Below the pieces are notes generated by a model that worked only from the letters and a program-made list of their open reading frames with translations, did no database searches and was not told the DNA's origin. Made by a program: the position numbers and the translations under genes. 64,000 nt of DNA from Oscillospiraceae bacterium (GTDB taxonomy: Bacteria > Bacillota > Clostridia > Oscillospirales > CAG-272), in the NCBI GenBank assembly GCA_015064445.1, contig SVSE01000003.1:150324-214323 (forward strand), read 5' to 3'. This document shows, one piece after another, positions 11,490 to 56,250 of this stretch (the first letter of the stretch is position 1; the number at the start of each line of letters is the position of its first letter).

Positions 11490-11936
11490 ATGAAGGTTGT
11501 TTTGATACAGGATGTCAAGGGACAGGGCAAGAAAAACGACATTATTAATGTCAGCGACGGATACGCAAGAAACTTCCTTTTCCCAAGAAAGCTTGCAATC
11601 GTTGCTGATGCAAAGGCTATAAATGATGTAAAGAACAAAAAATCGTCCGAGGAGCACAAAATCGAGCTTGAAAAGGCTAACGCACGCGAAATTGCAACAA
11701 GGCTTGGCGAAACCAAGGTTGTTATCAGCGCTGAGGCTGGCAAGGACGGAAGATTTTATGGTGCTATTACCTCAAAGGACATAAGCGATGCGCTCAAGGC
11801 TCAGGCAAAGCTTGATATTGACAAGAGAAAGATTGCCCTTGATGCACCTATTAAGGCGTTTGGCACATACATTGTTGATGTAAAGCTCTACTCTGGCATT
11901 AGTGGAAAGCTAAATGTACAGGTAAAGGAGAAATAA
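11490..11936 (+). CDS. rplI: 50S ribosomal protein L9
   Basis: [32 protein letters not shown] is typical of L9. Confidence 0.95.
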
Positions 11937-11937
11937 G

Positions 11938-13314
11938 ATGGACGCTTTACAAAGAAAGCTCCCCTTCTCCGTTGATGCAGAGCAAAGCGTGCTCGGAAGC
12001 ATACTTTGTGACCCAAATTGCTTTGGCGATGTTGCAGAAATCGTAACAATAGACGATTTCTACTTAGAGGAGCATAAAAAGATTTACGAGGTTTTCCTCG
12101 ATTTCAGCTATCAGAATAAGGTAGTTGACCTTGTAACAGTTATAAACGAGCTCGTTTCTCGTGGAATCTATCGTGATGATGACGAGGCGCGCTCATATAT
12201 TCGTATAATCGCCGAGGTTGTGCCAAGCGCGAGAAATGCCAAGGACTACGCAAAGATTGTCCACGACAAGAGCATTTTGAGAAGGCTCATCGAGGCTGCA
12301 GACGACATTCAAAGGGCTGCGTTTACCGAGGGAGAGGATGTTTCGCACATTGTTGACCTCGCTGAAAGAAAGATTTACGATATTGCAGGAAATAATGAGC
12401 GCCACGATTTTGTACATATTCGTGATGTTCTTCTTAAAACCTATGACCACCTAAAGGAGCTTGGCGAGGGCACAAGCGAGGAAAATCTCGGTATTCAATC
12501 GGGCTTCTCCGACCTTGATAATACTCTTGTTGGCTTCGGCAAGGGAAATATGATTATTGTCGGCGCGCGTCCTGGTGTTGGTAAAACATCATTTGCGCTC
12601 AACATAGGCGCAAATATTGCAAAGCGCACAGGCAAGGCTGTTTGCATATTCTCTCTTGAAATGTCGGACGAGGAGCTTGTTTCTCGTGTTGTTTCAAGTG
12701 AGGCAATGGTTGACTCCTATAAGCTTCGTAAGGGCGAGCTTAGCGTTGACGAGTGGGAGAAGCTTGCACACGCATCATCTACACTCTCTGAAACTAATAT
12801 TTTGATTGATGATACAACCGGAATTTCAATAACCTCTATGAAGGCAAAGCTTCGCAGAGTTAAAAATCTCGGTATGGTAATTGTCGACTATCTTCAGCTT
12901 ATGCAGCCTGAAAGACACGGTGGCGACCAAAACCGTGTAAACCAAATTGGAGAAATCTCCCGTGGTCTTAAGGTTATGGCAAAGGAGCTTGGCGTGCCTG
13001 TTATGGTGCTTTCACAGCTCTCTCGTACAGCTGAAAAGAACGGAGAAACCGGCAAGGCGACATCTCGTACACCTATGCTTAGCGATCTTCGTGATTCGGG
13101 ATCTATTGAGCAGGATGCCGATATGGTAATCTTCCTAAGTCGTGACTACTATGGAACTGATCCGGAAAGAGAAAACCTCGTTGATGTTGTCGTGGCTAAA
13201 AACCGTCACGGCTCAACCGGTAAGGTTACAATGAGCTGGATTGGTAAATATACCAAGTTCTCTACTCTCGATAAGGAAGAGGCTCAAAGATTTGGCGTAA
13301 ATTACGACTTGTGA
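11938..13314 (+). CDS. dnaB: Replicative DNA helicase
   Basis: Walker A GARPGVGKT, the DYLQLM motif and the DnaB N-terminal domain are present. Confidence 0.95.
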   Translation: MDALQRKLPFSVDAEQSVLGSILCDPNCFGDVAEIVTIDDFYLEEHKKIYEVFLDFSYQNKVVDLVTVINELVSRGIYRDDDEARSYIRIIAEVVPSARNAKDYAKIVHDKSILRRLIEAADDIQRAAFTEGEDVSHIVDLAERKIYDIAGNNERHDFVHIRDVLLKTYDHLKELGEGTSEENLGIQSGFSDLDNTLVGFGKGNMIIVGARPGVGKTSFALNIGANIAKRTGKAVCIFSLEMSDEELVSRVVSSEAMVDSYKLRKGELSVDEWEKLAHASSTLSETNILIDDTTGISITSMKAKLRRVKNLGMVIVDYLQLMQPERHGGDQNRVNQIGEISRGLKVMAKELGVPVMVLSQLSRTAEKNGETGKATSRTPMLSDLRDSGSIEQDADMVIFLSRDYYGTDPERENLVDVVVAKNRHGSTGKVTMSWIGKYTKFSTLDKEEAQRFGVNYDL

Positions 13315-13330
13315 CGCGCAAAGCACGCAA

Positions 13331-13365
13331 GTTCGAAGTGCGAAGTGCGAAGTGCGAAACGCGAA
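13331..13365 (+). repeat. Heptanucleotide array (GTTCGAA (GTGCGAA)x3 ACGCGAA)
   Basis: Five tandem 7-nt units directly after the dnaB stop codon. Confidence 0.85.
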
Positions 13366-13455
13366 GTTGTTCGCAACGAATATAAATTAAAGGAGAAATT
13401 ATAAGCTACTCTAATCGTTTCGTTTAACTTTAAACGATTAGAAGCACCGCTTATA

Positions 13456-13575
13456 TGAGCCTTCAGAATCAAGCAAGACAAGGCGCACCGGAAGAACAAC
13501 GGGCGACGGTGTATTTACATACTCCGAGGTCGGTGTTCGGGAGCAACGATGGATTGCGTAGATTATCAAGGCTCA
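13456..13575 (+). repeat. Structured ~120-nt repeat family, copy 2
   Basis: Outer arms TGAGCCTT/AAGGCTCA, block AAGGCGCACCG, a central covarying hairpin, and block GAGCAACG. Confidence 0.85.
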
Positions 13576-14319
13576 GATTTAAAGATGGAATTTAATGTAA
13601 ACCACCCTATACTATTCATCTTAGTAGGAATAATCATCGCCACGGTGTTGGCACAATCATTTTACTTTTTGATTCGTGCTTACAGGCGTGCGCTTGCAAA
13701 GGGAATGGAAAAGAGTCTGCTTAAAAAGACTATTATTTCCTCTGCCGTTTTCACTATCGCGCCTGCGATTTCAATACTTGTTGGCGTTATTTCACTTTCA
13801 AAATCGCTTGGCGTTGCTGTTCCTTGGCTTCGTCTTTCGGTTATCGGCTCACTCTCTTATGAGATGATTGCTGCAAACAATGCTATGAACGGCTTTGGCG
13901 AAACGCTTAACGGCGAAATTACAGATCCAAGCGTTTTTGTTACTGTCCTTTGGGTTATGACCATCGGCATTCTTCTCGGTCTTGTTCTTACACCTGTTCT
14001 TACAAAAAAGATTCAGGGTGGTATGATTAAGCTCGAAAAGAGCGACGCAAAATGGCGCGAGATATTCAACAACGCAATGTTCCTTGGTATGATTTCTGCA
14101 TTCCTTGGCTTCGTATTCTGCGATTTTGCAAATCTCTTCAAGGGCGACACAAGCGCACTTATCGCTCCGCTCGTAATGGCAACCTCAGCTATCATTATGG
14201 CTGTGCTTGGCATTCTTGCCGTCAAGACAAAGAAAAGATGGCTCTCGGATTATGCTCTTCCTGTATCTATGGTTGCAGGAATGGCTATGGCAATACCATA
14301 CACTGCGTGGCTCGCATAA
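13549..14319 (+). CDS. Polytopic membrane protein of unknown function
   Basis: Multiple hydrophobic helices. The ATG at 13549 lies inside the repeat and is preceded by GGGAG. An alternative start is 13585 (MEFNVNH). Confidence 0.6.
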   Translation: MDCVDYQGSDLKMEFNVNHPILFILVGIIIATVLAQSFYFLIRAYRRALAKGMEKSLLKKTIISSAVFTIAPAISILVGVISLSKSLGVAVPWLRLSVIGSLSYEMIAANNAMNGFGETLNGEITDPSVFVTVLWVMTIGILLGLVLTPVLTKKIQGGMIKLEKSDAKWREIFNNAMFLGMISAFLGFVFCDFANLFKGDTSALIAPLVMATSAIIMAVLGILAVKTKKRWLSDYALPVSMVAGMAMAIPYTAWLA

Positions 14320-14329
14320 GGAGGACATT

Positions 14330-15010
14330 ATGGATAAAAATGTAAATAAAAAGGAATTGTCCTACCTCGACAGCGTGCACCGTGATGGTAAAATCTGGGG
14401 CTTTACTCTTCTTGCAATAATCTTCCTTTTCCCACTTATCGTATGCCTTATTTTCAACGCAGTTCCTAACTGGAGTGCGCTTGGAAAGGGGCTTCTTGCC
14501 ACAGTTCCTATGTACTGGGCTGTTGGTCTTATCGAGGTTATTACCTATGTTCCTATGCTTGGTGCAGGTGGTACATACCTCTCATTTGTAACAGGTAACA
14601 TTTCAAATCTTAAGCTCCCTGTTGCGCTTGACTCAATGGAAAAGGCTGGTGTTAAGTCAAACAGCGAGGAGGGCGAAATTATCTCGACAATTTCAATTGC
14701 AACCTCGAGCATTGTAACAACTATTATCGTTATTCTCGGCGTAATTTTAATTGTTCCTTTGACACCTATACTCTCATCTCCTGTGCTCGACCCTGCGTTT
14801 GCACAAATGCTCCCTGCGCTCTTTGGTGGACTTGGAGTTGTATTCGTTTCCAAGAACTGGAAGCTTGCAATCGCACCTATCGTGCTTATGCTAATTCTCT
14901 TTATAGCAATCCCTGCACTCAATGCAGGAACTGTTGGAATTATGGTTCCTGTTGGAGTTGTATTCACAGTAATTGTTGCAAGAATTATGTACAAAAAGGG
15001 AATTCTATAA
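14330..15010 (+). CDS. Polytopic membrane protein of unknown function, probably co-operonic with the previous gene
   Basis: AGGAGG RBS 6 nt before the ATG at 14330, and several TM helices. Confidence 0.6.
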   Translation: MDKNVNKKELSYLDSVHRDGKIWGFTLLAIIFLFPLIVCLIFNAVPNWSALGKGLLATVPMYWAVGLIEVITYVPMLGAGGTYLSFVTGNISNLKLPVALDSMEKAGVKSNSEEGEIISTISIATSSIVTTIIVILGVILIVPLTPILSSPVLDPAFAQMLPALFGGLGVVFVSKNWKLAIAPIVLMLILFIAIPALNAGTVGIMVPVGVVFTVIVARIMYKKGIL

Positions 15011-17700: not shown

Positions 17701-17723
17701 AATGCGGAATTCGGAATGCGGAG
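17701..17723 (-). repeat. Heptanucleotide array (reverse orientation: CTCCGCA TTCCGAA TTCCGCA)
   Basis: AATGCGGAATTCGGAATGCGGAG is read on the + strand. Confidence 0.75.
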
Positions 17724-17799
17724 TGAAAAGGGGACGAAATCCACCAAGGCGTACCACAAAACCATGGATTTCAGGCGTTTAAGCTAAACCGTCCTAAAA

Positions 17800-17920
17800 T
17801 TAAGAGCATTTAGGCAATATTAGACAAGGCGCACCACAGTAGGCGGACGAAGGCTATCTTCGGGATAGTCGAGGTCGACTACGAGGAGCAACGCAGTATA
17901 ATGAAGCGTAAATCTCTTAA
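17800..17920 (+). repeat. Structured ~120-nt repeat family, copy 3
   Basis: Arms TTAAGAG/CTCTTAA, then AGGCAA..AAGGCGCACC, a central hairpin GGCTATC/GATAGTC, and GAGGAGCAACG. The stop codon of the galactokinase-like gene lies inside the right arm. Confidence 0.85.
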
Positions 17921-19194
17921 ATTGAAATTGCGCCGTATGGGCGAATTTTAAGCACATAGCACGCGCCTGCGCCAAATGCACCGTCAATTGCGTTACGGTA
18001 ATTTTCAACCTCTGCCATTGGAACAAAGGCTTGAATTGTGCCTGCAAAGCCACCACCGTGAACACGGAATGCGCCACCCTTACCTCTCAACACATTTTCG
18101 GTAATGCAGAGGGCGAGGGAGAGTCCCTGCTCGTACACATTCTTGGTGGTAAATACATTTTGCAAATACATAAAGGATGAGCGACCACTCTTTAATACAT
18201 TCTCAAAGAATGTGTCGATATCTCCGTCCTTAAGCGCCTTTGCTTGAATTTCTACTCTTTCGTTTTCATCGAAGAAGTGGAGTGCGCGCAAAACTGCTCT
18301 ATCTCCTACATTTTGGCGAAGTGACTTAATATCGCCAAGGAGCTGTTCTCTTGTCATTTGGCGAAGCACAGCATATCCAAAATGAGCTGCAACGCTCTTC
18401 ATCTCGGCAGGAACTGACGCATAATCCTCGTTTAGATCTGCGTGGTTTCCACCTGTATTAACAATGCAAAGTGCATAGCCTGCGCTTGTAAGGTCGAAGT
18501 TAACCTTTTCGATTACAGGAGCGCCCGGAGTCTCAAAGTCGATAGCAACGAAGCCACCAACAGCGCACGCAACCTGGTCCATAAGTCCACAGGGCTTGCC
18601 AAAGAACTTGTTCTCAGCAAACTGAGCCATCTTTGCGATTTCAACATTGTCAACCTGTCCGTCGTTATAGAGGTAGTTGAGAATGTTACCTATCATAACC
18701 TCGAATGCAGCAGAGGATGAAAGTCCCGAGCCCTTAAACACATTTGAGGTTGTATATGCTACATAGCCACCGATTTTGAGGTCGTTGTTTGTAAATGCTC
18801 TTGCCATACCTGCGATAAGAGCGCTCGATTTGAAATAATCGTCCTCGTTTGGTGTAAGATATTCCGAAATATCGACACAGTCCTCGTCAAAGCCTCTGCT
18901 CTTTATACGAATAAGAGAGTCGTCTGTCTTTGATGCAACTGCGATAATGTCAAGATTGATTGAGCCTGCAAGCACCTTTCCAAAGTTGTGGTCGGTGTGG
19001 TTGCCTGAAATCTCACTTCTGCCAGGAACGCTGAAAAGTGAAGCCTCGCGCTCGCCATACATGCTATAAAAATCATCAAGGGCGCCTATGTATCTTTCTC
19101 TTTGCGCCTCTACTGCCTCGCTACCATAGATTTCTGCGAGTCTTGCGTCAAGCGCACCTGCCTTTATGCTATTCAAAAGCTCTGTTGTTTTCAT
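17917..19194 (-). CDS. Galactokinase-family GHMP kinase
   Basis: PGRSEISGNHTDH signature and the GHMP motif GSGLSSSAA. Confidence 0.75.
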   Translation of the reverse strand: MKTTELLNSIKAGALDARLAEIYGSEAVEAQRERYIGALDDFYSMYGEREASLFSVPGRSEISGNHTDHNFGKVLAGSINLDIIAVASKTDDSLIRIKSRGFDEDCVDISEYLTPNEDDYFKSSALIAGMARAFTNNDLKIGGYVAYTTSNVFKGSGLSSSAAFEVMIGNILNYLYNDGQVDNVEIAKMAQFAENKFFGKPCGLMDQVACAVGGFVAIDFETPGAPVIEKVNFDLTSAGYALCIVNTGGNHADLNEDYASVPAEMKSVAAHFGYAVLRQMTREQLLGDIKSLRQNVGDRAVLRALHFFDENERVEIQAKALKDGDIDTFFENVLKSGRSSFMYLQNVFTTKNVYEQGLSLALCITENVLRGKGGAFRVHGGGFAGTIQAFVPMAEVENYRNAIDGAFGAGACYVLKIRPYGAISI

Positions 19195-20058: not shown

Positions 20059-20219
20059 ATGAATCGGTGCTACACACCATGAATCGATGCTAACGCATCA
20101 TGAATTCTCGCTTCGCTCCATGAATCGAATTGCAACGCCAAATGCCGAAGGCAATTCATGCGATTTATCGCAATTCATGACACACAGTGTCAATTCATGC
20201 AACGCAGTTGCAATTCATT
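20059..20219. repeat. Hairpin-linker array, ATGAAT/AATTCAT family, copy 2
   Basis: Near-identical to 7980-8136. The differences are concentrated in two hairpins (first hairpin replaced, another altered) plus one substitution in the central segment. Confidence 0.85.
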
Positions 20220-20257
20220 GTAGTAGATTATGCGAACTACTTCGCATAATCTACTAC
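20220..20257. repeat. Perfect 17-bp hairpin made from the last codons of rny and their inverted copy
   Basis: GTAGTAGATTATGCGAA / TTCGCATAATCTACTAC; the stop codon (20237-20239) is in the loop. Confidence 0.8.
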
Positions 20258-22030: not shown

Positions 22031-22531
22031 ATGCTAAAAGCCATTGATGCCGGCCTTTGCGAGCGCCTAAGGGACGAGTTTGCCCTGCTTGGTGCGACAA
22101 GGGACGACGGAAAATTCAATTTTATGACCGTTTCCTGGGGAGGCGTTGGAATCCTTTGGGGAAAAGAGGTTTGCTTTGTGTTTGTGCGCCCTGAGAGGTA
22201 CACATACGAGTTCTGCGAGGCGAGTGAGCGCTTTTCGCTTTCGTTCTTCGACTCATCAAGAAGGGCTGACCTTGTATTTTGTGGTCGAAGCTCGGGAAGA
22301 GATGTTGACAAGGCAAGGGAATGCGGCTTTAATGTCGAAATTGTCGACGGAGTGCCTAAATTTGACGACGCAACGCTCACCTTGACTCTGCGTAAGCTGT
22401 ACGCACAGGACATCGAAAAAGCATGCTTTATCGACACATCCCTGCTCAAAAATTACGAAAACGCAGGCTTTCACAGAATGTACATTTGTGAGGTTACAAA
22501 TGCGGAATTCGGAGTTCGGAATGCGGAATGA
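22031..22531 (+). CDS. Flavin reductase-like domain protein
   Basis: FNFMTVSWGG core. The last 10 codons and the stop codon are encoded by the heptamer array. Confidence 0.6.
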   Translation: MLKAIDAGLCERLRDEFALLGATRDDGKFNFMTVSWGGVGILWGKEVCFVFVRPERYTYEFCEASERFSLSFFDSSRRADLVFCGRSSGRDVDKARECGFNVEIVDGVPKFDDATLTLTLRKLYAQDIEKACFIDTSLLKNYENAGFHRMYICEVTNAEFGVRNAE

Positions 22532-22568
22532 AAAGTGCGAAACGCGAAATGCGAAACGCGAAGTTAAA
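22499..22568. repeat. Heptanucleotide array, 10 units (AATGCGG AATTCGG AGTTCGG AATGCGG AATGAAA AGTGCGA AACGCGA AATGCGA AACGCGA AGTTAAA)
   Basis: 7-nt periodicity that overlaps the CDS 3' end. Confidence 0.85.
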
Positions 22569-22609
22569 AATAAACAAGCTTAAAATATAAGAAAGGACTT
22601 CTAACATAA

Positions 22610-24800: not shown

Positions 24801-24891
24801 GCGAAGCGTGCTTCGCAATGAAATCCCGCTGGGATGAAATCCGTCAAGGACGGATGAAATCCACCTTTGGTGGATGAAATCGCTTCGCGAT
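24801..24891 (+). repeat. Hairpin-linker array, GAA/ATC..GAT family (5 consecutive hairpins)
   Basis: GCGAAG/CTTCGC is followed by ATCCC-GCT-GGGAT, ATCCGTC-AAG-GACGGAT, ATCCACC-TTT-GGTGGAT and ATCGC-TTC-GCGAT. The ATC..GAT hairpins are joined to one another by GAA. Confidence 0.9.
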
Positions 24892-24940
24892 AGGAATTAA
24901 TTTTAAAAAATAAATTTAGAAAGCAAAAGAAAGGAATTAC

Positions 24941-25062
24941 CTTGAGCCTTCAGAAGCACGCAAGGCAAGGCGCACCGCAGCCGGCAGGCGATGGCTATCT
25001 TTTTGATAGTCGAGGTTGTCGGCGAGGAGCAACGCTGAATTGCACAGCTTACAAGGCTCAAG
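24941..25062 (+). repeat. Structured ~120-nt repeat family, copy 4
   Basis: 10-bp outer stem CTTGAGCCTT/AAGGCTCAAG, block AAGGCGCACCG, hairpin CCGGCA..GGCTATC/GATAGTC..TGTCGG, and block GAGGAGCAACG. Confidence 0.9.
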
Positions 25063-55957: not shown

Positions 55958-56250
55958 GCGTGTTATCCTTAACGGAGAACACGCATCGAGATAAATCCCT
56001 CGCGGGATTTTCGATATACGCCTATGGCGTTCGATATGTGCTGACGCACTCGATATGTTTGCTGCGCAAACGAGGGATTTATCTCATATCGAGTTCGAGC
56101 AGCCGGGGTTCCCCGAAGCGAAGAATGAGCTTTTGGGGTTCGCAGCGTAGCGAGAACATATCGAGTGGGCAAAGCCCACATATCGACAGAAAGAAAAACA
56201 AGAGCAAGAGTACAAGGAGAAAATCCTTATATTCTTGCTCTGTTTGTTTT
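55958..56250 (+). repeat. Hairpin-linker array, ATATCGA/TCGATAT family, copy B (inverted relative to copy A), with a nested GGGGTTCCCC element and a terminator-hairpin module
   Basis: Its central ~114 nt differ at one position from the reverse complement of 43490-43604. Confidence 0.9.

Follow-up and report, generated by a model that had tools for sequence, protein, structure and literature searches.

A family of hairpin-forming intergenic repeats with mid-stem conservation and a uniform orientation in gut Oscillospiraceae

A stretch of 64,000 nt from an Oscillospiraceae bacterium (contig SVSE01000003.1, positions 150,324 to 214,323; "the window" in what follows means this whole stretch) carries between its genes a structured repeat of about 120 nt that we call the rod, and the question that it raises is what sort of element keeps one fold and one orientation among genes that run both ways. 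An earlier note on this DNA had described six same-strand copies, and a covariance model (R1), run across the whole window with the filters off, found exactly six, all on the + strand. The cores at 24952-25052 and 36602-36702 scored 100 and 99 bits, those at 13465-13566, 5919-6020 and 17811-17911 scored 90, 87 and 85 bits, and the one at 51554-51672 scored 31 bits (48 bits across 51540-51687 in a later run). A strict pattern, AGGCGCAMC..AGGT..AGCAAC, matched five of the six copies, with 0 matches expected in shuffles. The ~10 kb added on each side of the window held no further copies, i.e., the density is 6 per 64 kb and still 6 in ~84 kb. The genes flanking copies 1 to 6 are -/-, +/+, -/-, +/+, -/- and +/-, and the single orientation among genes of both strands is as had been described. 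The arms of copy 1 had been taken to be truncated, which is wrong: CTATTGGTTTTGA and TCGAAATCAATAG pair, with G-T pairs, across 5907-6032.

The window and about ten related metagenome-assembled genomes (MAGs) of gut Oscillospiraceae/Clostridia together yielded 47 copies. All of them fold as one long rod of six helices (P1-P6) with a length of about 120-135 nt. The outer stem, P1, has 8-13 bp and is very variable, with more than 20 variants among the copies. P2 is RRGC/GCYY, with a conserved G.A mismatch alongside, and P3 and P4 are variable. Between P4 and P5 there is a conserved core in which G-C, GC-GC and CC-GG pairs are broken by fixed mismatches (GC opposite AA; A opposite A). P5 (8-9 bp) is again variable, the internal loop beyond it is conserved as GGRCGA opposite RAGGT, with an invariant G.T, and P6 (7-8 bp) carries an apical loop of 4-8 nt that varies in sequence and in length (cUUCGg in copy 3). 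The other conserved mid-stem internal loop is AGGCGCACC opposite GGAGCAAC, and the consensus of the folding strand reads 5'-..AGRRGCAAG..AGGCGCACC(R)CA-[P5]-GGRCGA-N-[P6 hairpin]-RAGGT-[P5']-GAGGAGCAAC..GAMGCTTAT..-3'. Of the features listed in the earlier note, the sequence indeed has outer arms that pair, two conserved blocks, helices that covary, the loop GGCG(A/C)N facing (G/A)AGGT, and G-T pairs. AGGCAA, given there as the 5' block, is a real variant of it and not the sole one, the other being AGAAGCAAG.

Full copies had fold z-scores of -4 to -6 against dinucleotide shuffles. Covariation was measured on two alignments, one of 36 copies made with MAFFT, with a structure hand-written from the fold of one copy, and one of 47 copies that was fitted to the covariance model and so leans toward the structure. 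Paired cells amounted to 86.9% and 87.6%, respectively, against 26-40% and 28-41% when the partners were slid. Pairs changed on both sides were 24 of 32 and 26 of 32, core pairs included, and the covariation scores were 0.475 (0.07-0.10 slid) and 0.49 (0.06-0.12 slid); none of 500 shuffles reached the observed values. Diverged tandem copies compensate even in the "invariant" core, where GCGCACC/GGAGC becomes GCGGACC/GGACC or GCGTTTTT/AAAAAG. With more copies aligned, covariation thus stays well above the shuffled and slid controls, and the double-changed pairs, the paired fraction and the score of the 47-copy alignment all speak for selection on a folded single strand and not for a plain duplication, as had been proposed from the window.

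The strand that folds can also be told. Among the helix cells, with the invariant G.T excluded, G-T or T-G outnumber A-C or C-A by 69 to 15; about 12 of the former are artefactual, owing to the register in the type-2 P5, and the corrected counts are about 57 vs 12. The AGGCGCACC (+) strand is the more stable one in 33 of 35 copies (mean -47.6 vs -39.8 kcal/mol, RNA parameters) and in five of five with DNA parameters, where the complement loses the central part of the rod. The use of G-T pairs as strand evidence was therefore sound. The asymmetry is equally strong in copies antisense to both neighbours as in sense copies, and it is the same in the copies downstream of rny that are kept across four MAGs. 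The folded strand is the one reading AGGCGCACC...GGRCGA...RAGGT...GGAGCAAC. Since the asymmetry persists in antisense copies, carriage in host mRNAs cannot explain it. In these copies the host transcript is the complement, and pairing specific to one strand is nonetheless maintained, which speaks for the element itself having a single-stranded form.

The family is restricted to uncultured gut bacteria of herbivores, Oscillospiraceae and related Clostridia. A pattern scan with one genome per species gave ten real loci, all in Eubacteriales/Clostridia/Oscillospiraceae MAGs from the guts of yak, goat, deer and similar animals; this first pattern was too loose, and its 119 loci were for the most part accidental, chiefly GGNGCAAC repeats of collagen-like type from GC-rich genomes. 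A tighter pattern matched 16 contigs of one metagenome assembly and no viral contigs. As a negative control, 99 unrelated loci (717 kb) were searched with R1, which found nothing. The RNase Y of the window is identical to a protein ascribed to an uncultured Ruminococcaceae/Oscillospiraceae MAG. Two relatives whose RNase Y is 94% and 90% identical have four and two copies in 21 kb, and three others with RNase Y 80-84% identical have no copy in the syntenic 21 kb, although one of these copy-less stretches belongs to a MAG with copies elsewhere (L106; relatives are designated by L numbers). We conclude from this that the family is lineage-restricted with a variable density. Blastn found no match to the rod in 72,556 plasmids or in phages, Rfam 15 had no match on any copy either at the gathering threshold or at E <= 10, and the conserved strings, searched in the literature, brought up nothing but primers and unrelated matches. 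The earlier note had not recognised the repeat as a named RNA family or as a miniature inverted-repeat transposable element (MITE), and rightly so as far as the present searches reach: to the absence from Rfam is added that the more than 20 variants of the outer arms leave no conserved terminal repeats of transposase type. Nothing in Rfam, in the plasmid and phage collections or in the searched literature corresponds to the rod family.

Comparison of relatives reveals a considerable turnover of copies. Presence or absence differs among close relatives at the rhamnosidase, galK and rny sites. The galK site (copy 3) is empty in L142 and has a different variant in L133, and the methylglyoxal synthase (MGS) site (copy 4) has another variant in L142 and no copy in L143. 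L142 holds two near-identical copies at two different sites, 5' flank included, and tandem pairs are found in four MAGs (L004, L059, L076 and L106). The strain variant L139 has copy 4 with the same outer arms and, in place of its inner P5-P6 module, a type-2 module with a nested hairpin. Other positions are kept across MAGs, such as the one downstream of rny, and in P1 two neighbouring base pairs, both compensated, distinguish the orthologous copies of L142 and L135. Subfamilies of P1 occur at unrelated sites (copies 2 and 4; copies 3, 6 and L129a), and on this ground we have rejected that an inserting rod copies its P1 from the target flank. In many P1 arms TTAA stands at both the start and the end, and a palindromic duplication is there indistinguishable from stem extension. 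Upstream of the rods, sigma-70-like matches on the + strand were no better than in controls (7.83 vs 7.69 and 7.44).

Rods share the intergenic space with other repeats. A second small hairpin element of 40-50 nt, YGCGAACCCCCAAAAC..TTCGGGGAACCCC, occurs in the window at 51593-51632 (+), 43340-43379 (+, alone) and ~56105-56140 (-). It sits inside rods (copy 6 and the L139 variant have it in the apical loop of P6, L121 and L129 in the 5' arm), and it was seen also in L143; the extra length of copy 6 is due to this nested ~40-nt element in its apical loop. The AGGCG motif found after the rod-associated small elements suggests a site-specific insertion. On the reverse complement of L143 (~14030-14400 and 11530-11960), a further repeat of ~110 nt (GTGCAAGGCGTTRCGACTC..GGAGTGTCACTTAACC) is fused twice to 5'-truncated inner modules of rods. 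The intergenic regions of the rod-bearing lineage are mosaics of several repeat families, in the manner of BIMEs.

All the contigs with several copies are strand-concordant: 6/6 in the window, 5/5 in L004, 3/3 in L135, 4/4 in L142, 2/2 in L143, 2/2 in L129 and 3/3 on contig JAFQUJ..004, on which L013 and L076 both lie. In 13 of 16 contigs most coding bases are on the strand opposite that of the element (on the - strand in the window, at 73%), and among 24 copies the flanking genes are, relative to the element, (-,-) 14 times, (+,+) four times and mixed six times. At the antisense sites the 3' arm of P1 reaches into the convergent gene's stop codon or adjoins it (copies 1, 3 and 5; the rny site in four MAGs). 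In copy 1 the 3' arm spans the last two codons and the stop of a GDSL lipase gene (6026-6721, -), and in copy 5 it spans the last codons and the stop of the gene for the beta subunit of oxaloacetate decarboxylase (OAD-beta; 36705-38102, -). Copies 2 and 4 stay + inside blocks of + strand genes, which indicates that orientation follows something larger than the local gene.

A comparison of copy orientation with GC skew, suggested in the earlier note, was carried out and turned out uninformative, the skew being equal in size and opposite in sign on + and - genes. As skew merely tracks gene strand, the direction of replication was taken from gene-strand bias. This bias is strong in Firmicutes, with a leading/lagging ratio of 2.58, and the mobile DNA of the group shows a strong replication-linked orientation bias (PMC3971601). 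The direction is supported by one relative, where rny and the origin-proximal trmE run the same way. The - strand is thus probably the leading strand here, and the folding strand of the rods would be the leading-strand template. In 1991 Trinh and Sinden reportedly found that hairpins are deleted preferentially when formed on the lagging-strand template. In sedentary integrons the recombinogenic strand of attC is found in the template of the leading strand for 25 of 30, where folding is least (PMC5371416). The polarity of the rods would match that of sedentary-integron attC sites and the Trinh-Sinden deletion finding.

A peculiar position recurs among the sense copies. At three sense sites (MGS, DUF5058 and, in L135 and L142, rhamnosidase) the rod separates the Shine-Dalgarno sequence from the ATG. 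For MGS the window reads AAAGGA-ATTACC-[rod]-...AAATT-ATG and the rod-less L143 reads AAAGGA-CTTTTCAAA-ATG. The rhamnosidase gene of the window, where the site is empty, has AAAGGA-CTTCTAACATAA-ATG, and L135 and L142 hold a rod there. In rod-less relatives or sites the Shine-Dalgarno is 9-12 nt from the ATG, and most other genes of the window have a normal one 6-10 nt upstream. The split arrangement is frequent but not universal, as the sense copy L129b is located upstream of a normal Shine-Dalgarno. Several leader copies, L135 and L142 among them, have an upstream GATAAGC..CTTCTAGCC that is complementary to both P2 strands; this pairing is predicted to give an alternative three-way fold that would free the start codon. 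Compaction of the leader rods in + RNA plausibly matters.

A conserved core in mid-stem with covarying arms, high copy number, turnover with module exchange and the lack of a promoter signal fit a replicator, selfish or semi-domesticated, better than a host RNA gene. The explanation that we favour, tentatively and with somewhat less than even confidence, is that the rod is a non-coding, non-autonomous replicator similar to REPINs or attC sites, which depends on folded single-strand DNA (ssDNA) and has a putative protein partner. A trans-acting protein would probably dock or cut at the two conserved mid-stem internal loops, and the helices around them, which would need only to pair, could drift with compensatory changes. 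As an intragenomic replicator the rod would duplicate to new intergenic sites, form tandems, exchange its inner module and be lost again. With the folding strand on the leading-strand template it would be least exposed as ssDNA and so suffer the least deletion or processing. The fold, its strand, the covariation, the turnover and the concordance within contigs are demonstrated by the data, whereas we infer the ssDNA state (the form that folds may instead be RNA), the protein partner, the replication direction and the reason for the polarity.

Several facts weigh against such a replicator. Between filled and empty sites no clean duplication of the target appears, and the ends are not conserved but are the most variable part. 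Pfam scans of ~30 window proteins and the annotations of relatives gave no transposase, HUH enzyme or recombinase, and the readable sequence (64-84 kb of this genome and 2-21-kb pieces of relatives) holds no Y1 transposase. The frequent pairs of G.U type, the cUUCGg loop of copy 3 and the purine-rich internal loops look RNA-like, and three copies, situated within 5' leaders, are certain to be transcribed in the orientation that folds. Many loci share one syntenic region, which reduces the concordance of orientation to ~10 independent comparisons (distinct non-tandem sites, orthologues merged), all concordant, with p ~0.001. The replication direction comes only from gene-strand bias and from synteny to the trmE-proximal relative. 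Finally, in IS200/IS605, the known paradigm of ssDNA transposons, the active strand is on the lagging-strand template (PMC3971601), and the rod polarity is the opposite.

The RNA-like features are what one would expect of a structured RNA read from the AGGCGCACC strand, either a cis module in leaders and intercistronic regions or a small RNA that binds a protein via the internal loops. In leaders, the compact fold would let a Shine-Dalgarno and a start codon 120-190 nt apart cooperate, or would switch them by alternative pairing. Single pairs pass through GC, GU and AU, the G.U is invariant, the cUUCGg loop is present, and positions are conserved across MAGs (e.g., downstream of rny). Besides, all three sense rods lie between Shine-Dalgarno and ATG, where + RNA is certainly made and where the upstream GATAAGC..CTTCTAGCC gives the predicted alternative fold. 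However, most copies either lie antisense to both neighbours (14 of 24) or run over a convergent stop, and the host mRNA there carries the worse-folding complement. There is no promoter-like enrichment upstream, no terminator-like 3' end and no functional theme common to the gene contexts; rapid turnover, module swaps and tandem duplication are unusual for a regulatory RNA; a strand concordance along the chromosome irrespective of local gene strand is not expected; and in some copies the distance from Shine-Dalgarno to AUG is still 18-31 nt after folding. We consider this explanation unlikely, although it is the main rival to the replicator. Much less probable to us is that rods are hairpins without function kept by mutation, i.e., by template switching (quasi-palindrome correction) and gene conversion, their orientation bias arising because copies are deleted faster if the strand that folds better is the lagging-strand template. 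Hairpins can arise and persist through template switching (PMC8794818), the two adjacent compensated pairs of P1 in L142 and L135 are easier to obtain in one templated event, and both the tandem duplications and a "shell" at 13440-13454, with the interior of a rod deleted, would agree with it. Template switching should nevertheless erase mismatches, whereas 46 distinct copies of different genera have kept such ones as A.A, GC/AA, GA/A and the invariant G.T. It leaves unexplained the conserved blocks of 9-10 nt and the excess of G-T over A-C, for which the deamination bias of the gene sense strand would presumably give the opposite.

Two further explanations take the rod as double-stranded or as host DNA. 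Very small is the probability that we give to a polar site for chromosome maintenance, acting in replication, segregation or repair, e.g., by priming or loading on one template strand. The strand concordance along the chromosome and the strand-specific fold with DNA parameters are in line with such a signal, and so are the rolling-circle plasmids of Firmicutes, which have rod-like single-strand origins with conserved mid-stem boxes. A maintenance signal would hardly be missing from the 21-kb syntenic stretches of the relatives with RNase Y 80-84% identical, or be gained and lost among close relatives with an irregular spacing, and the leading-strand template needs no priming signals. The classical MITE, a deletion derivative of an insertion sequence (IS) moved as double-stranded DNA via terminal inverted repeats, possibly into TTAA or TA, seems to us the least credible of all. 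It would account for presence and absence among relatives and for the TTAA at both ends of many P1 arms, and IS families of Firmicutes do show orientation bias. Nonetheless, the ends are the least conserved part (>20 P1 variants) and conservation is in mid-stem, no unambiguous target duplication was seen, strand-specific G-T pairing is not expected of a double-stranded substrate, and the parent IS was not seen.

Among known systems the closest in habit are the REPINs mobilised with RAYT (PMC3116915), which like rods are short, non-coding, high-copy and extragenic, form a long single-strand hairpin and lack a gene of their own; they also persist vertically, evolve by compensation and occupy sites by stop codons and within operons (PMC3116915). 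A REPIN, however, consists of two inverted copies of a conserved 20-40-nt REP (repetitive extragenic palindromic sequence) with a GTAG/CGTC tag, whereas rods have variable arms and two asymmetric mid-stem loops. The rod unit of 120-135 nt has no conserved tetranucleotide at the foot of P1, which sets it apart from a REP, and its arms pair but AGGCGCACC and GGAGCAAC are only partly complementary, with fixed mismatches. As populations rods do behave as REPs, being high-copy, extragenic and vertically persistent (47 copies in the fetched loci; orthologous positions kept). RAYT was not seen, the hosts are Clostridia, and the orientation is single while arrays of BIME type alternate. The attC sites (PMC5371416) resemble rods in their size of ~60-140 nt, in keeping structure with a largely free sequence, in having one folding strand and in the unpaired features of the stem. 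Their R''/R' boxes (RYYYAAC/GTTRRRY) are at the base of the stem, where rods have none on either strand, the nearest being GTTGCTC, on the complement and in mid-stem, where the conservation of rods lies. Rods form no cassette array either, since they are 4-15 kb apart with the essential dnaB and rny, galK, the oad operon and similar genes between them, and there is no intI.

The IS200/IS605 elements and their palindrome-associated derivatives share with rods strand-specific ssDNA hairpins (theirs recognised by HUH enzymes), the lack of target duplication and a replication-linked orientation bias. In their case the lagging-strand template bears the active strand, and they have two similar subterminal hairpins, in contrast to the opposite polarity and the one long hairpin of rods, near which neither TnpA nor TnpB was found. 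A derivation from IS200/IS605 was rejected on the polarity, as in 13 of 16 contigs the strand that folds is not the one with the majority of the genes (the replication direction being itself deduced). ERIC, BOX, RUP and Correia repeats are, like rods, imperfect palindromes of ~100-150 nt in transcribed intergenic DNA and can alter the expression of neighbours; unlike rods, they have conserved ends or modules and both orientations. We know of no report of strand-specific covariation with a conserved mid-stem core in any of them. In phage T4 genes 38 and 25, short hairpins bridge a split ribosome-binding site and bring Shine-Dalgarno and AUG together. These are single, short and gene-specific, while the rod is a mobile repeat of 120 nt in that position in three genes. 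Single-strand origins of ssoA type belong to rolling-circle plasmids and carry a conserved CS-6 hexamer in the terminal loop; the apical loops of rods are variable and no similarity was found in 72,556 plasmids, and this candidate was discarded. By inspection, the conserved loops do not fit the consensus of the K-turn, loop E, attC R/L boxes or a dif-like XerC arm. Dispersed structured intergenic repeats are thus a kind already known, and the rod is a new family within it; what is novel is the conservation in mid-stem and not at the ends, a strict polarity opposite to the IS200 type and the recurrence inside split ribosome-binding sites.

Table 1. Positions of rods and of features associated with them in the 64-kb window.
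Feature	Position	Strand	Description
Rod copy 1, complete	5907-6032	+	P1 = CTATTGGTTTTGA/TCGAAATCAATAG; type-2 inner module; antisense to both neighbours
"Shell" AGAAGCA-CC-GCTTAT	13440-13454	+	Two P2 strands of a rod joined, interior missing; directly 5' of copy 2
Rod copy 2	13456-13575	+	Sense; between Shine-Dalgarno AAAGGAG (13389-13395) and ATG (13585) of DUF5058 gene
Rod copy 3	17800-17920	+	Antisense; terminal TTAA of P1 overlaps galK stop codon (galK 17917-19194, -)
Empty site	22591-22607		Between Shine-Dalgarno and ATG of rhamnosidase gene; rod there in relatives L135 and L142
Rod copy 4	24941-25062	+	Sense; between Shine-Dalgarno AAAGGAA (24930-24936) and ATG (25080) of MGS gene
Rod copy 5	36592-36713	+	Antisense; inside oxaloacetate decarboxylase operon
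Rod copy 6	51528-51698	+	Between convergent genes; P6 apical loop holds nested hairpin; ATTCCGC heptamer runs on both sides
Nested small hairpin element CGAACCCCCAAAAC..TTCGGGGAACCCC	51593-51632	+	Inside copy 6; separate repeat family

The window is otherwise ordinary chromosome, with gdpP-rplI-dnaB, rny-ymdB-galK, methylglyoxal synthase, the oxaloacetate decarboxylase operon, glycosidases and a glycyl-radical-enzyme microcompartment locus. This last occupies 56.7-64 kb (it is found also in L147) and codes for a PFL-like enzyme, its activase, BMC shell proteins, PduV/EutP, an aldehyde dehydrogenase and an aldolase; neither the locus nor the next 10 kb holds a rod copy. The sole real Rfam match of the window is a Gut-1 RNA (RF01706) at 24816-24885 (+), distinct from the rod, which is an array of four to five short hairpins with a fixed ATGAAAT spacer. 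The same build, with CATGAAT/AATTCATG spacers, recurs at 43083-43252 (+), and it is found also in a 144-nt repeat with two copies 97% identical (7994-8137 and 20077-20220). Downstream of rny such an array takes in the window the place that a rod copy has in five relatives. Rather than being one small RNA gene, Gut-1 may thus belong to the dispersed repeats of this lineage. Many intergenic regions are filled with tandem heptamer runs (ATTCCGC/ATTCCGA; complement GGAATGC/GGAATTC; variants CGAAGTG/CGAAACG), found at 6700-6778, 35025-35089, ~13330-13370, 17705-17725, 22520-22565, 51508-51523 and 51700-51712, often just before an intrinsic terminator (30833-30880, 35066-35113). Among the genes, an open reading frame (ORF) at 1-1029 (+) codes for 23-residue repeats of MORN type (YEGxW...), visible as a periodicity of 69 nt and 138 nt in the DNA, and 43660-45537 and 45548-47425 (-) are tandem paralogous ORFs of 625 aa with Gly/Ser-rich stretches and no Pfam match.

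Dispersed structured repeats are familiar from Proteobacteria (REP/REPIN, ERIC) and from a few pathogens, and have hardly been explored in the uncultured Clostridia that dominate the gut. The rods provide there a clean case of strand-specific folding supported by covariation, and the covariance model can be used to annotate them in MAGs and to avoid their being mis-called as small RNAs or riboswitches. Free ends and a conserved middle invert the usual logic of transposons and point to a putative protein partner. The polarity, parallel to that of sedentary attC and opposite to IS200/IS605, would make rods a second natural system in which exposure during replication shapes elements of folded DNA. 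A hairpin of 120 nt between the Shine-Dalgarno and the start codon of three conserved genes offers a testable case of initiation across a large structured insert. A bolder proposal, which we regard as doubtful, is that rods represent a new class of structure-coded replicator defined by a protein site in mid-stem, copied and exchanged on a single strand that folds, the reverse in polarity of IS200/IS605, and that their copies would be tolerated or co-opted between Shine-Dalgarno and start codon as the fold re-joins the split ribosome-binding site. If this were true, rods would be a mobile translational module.

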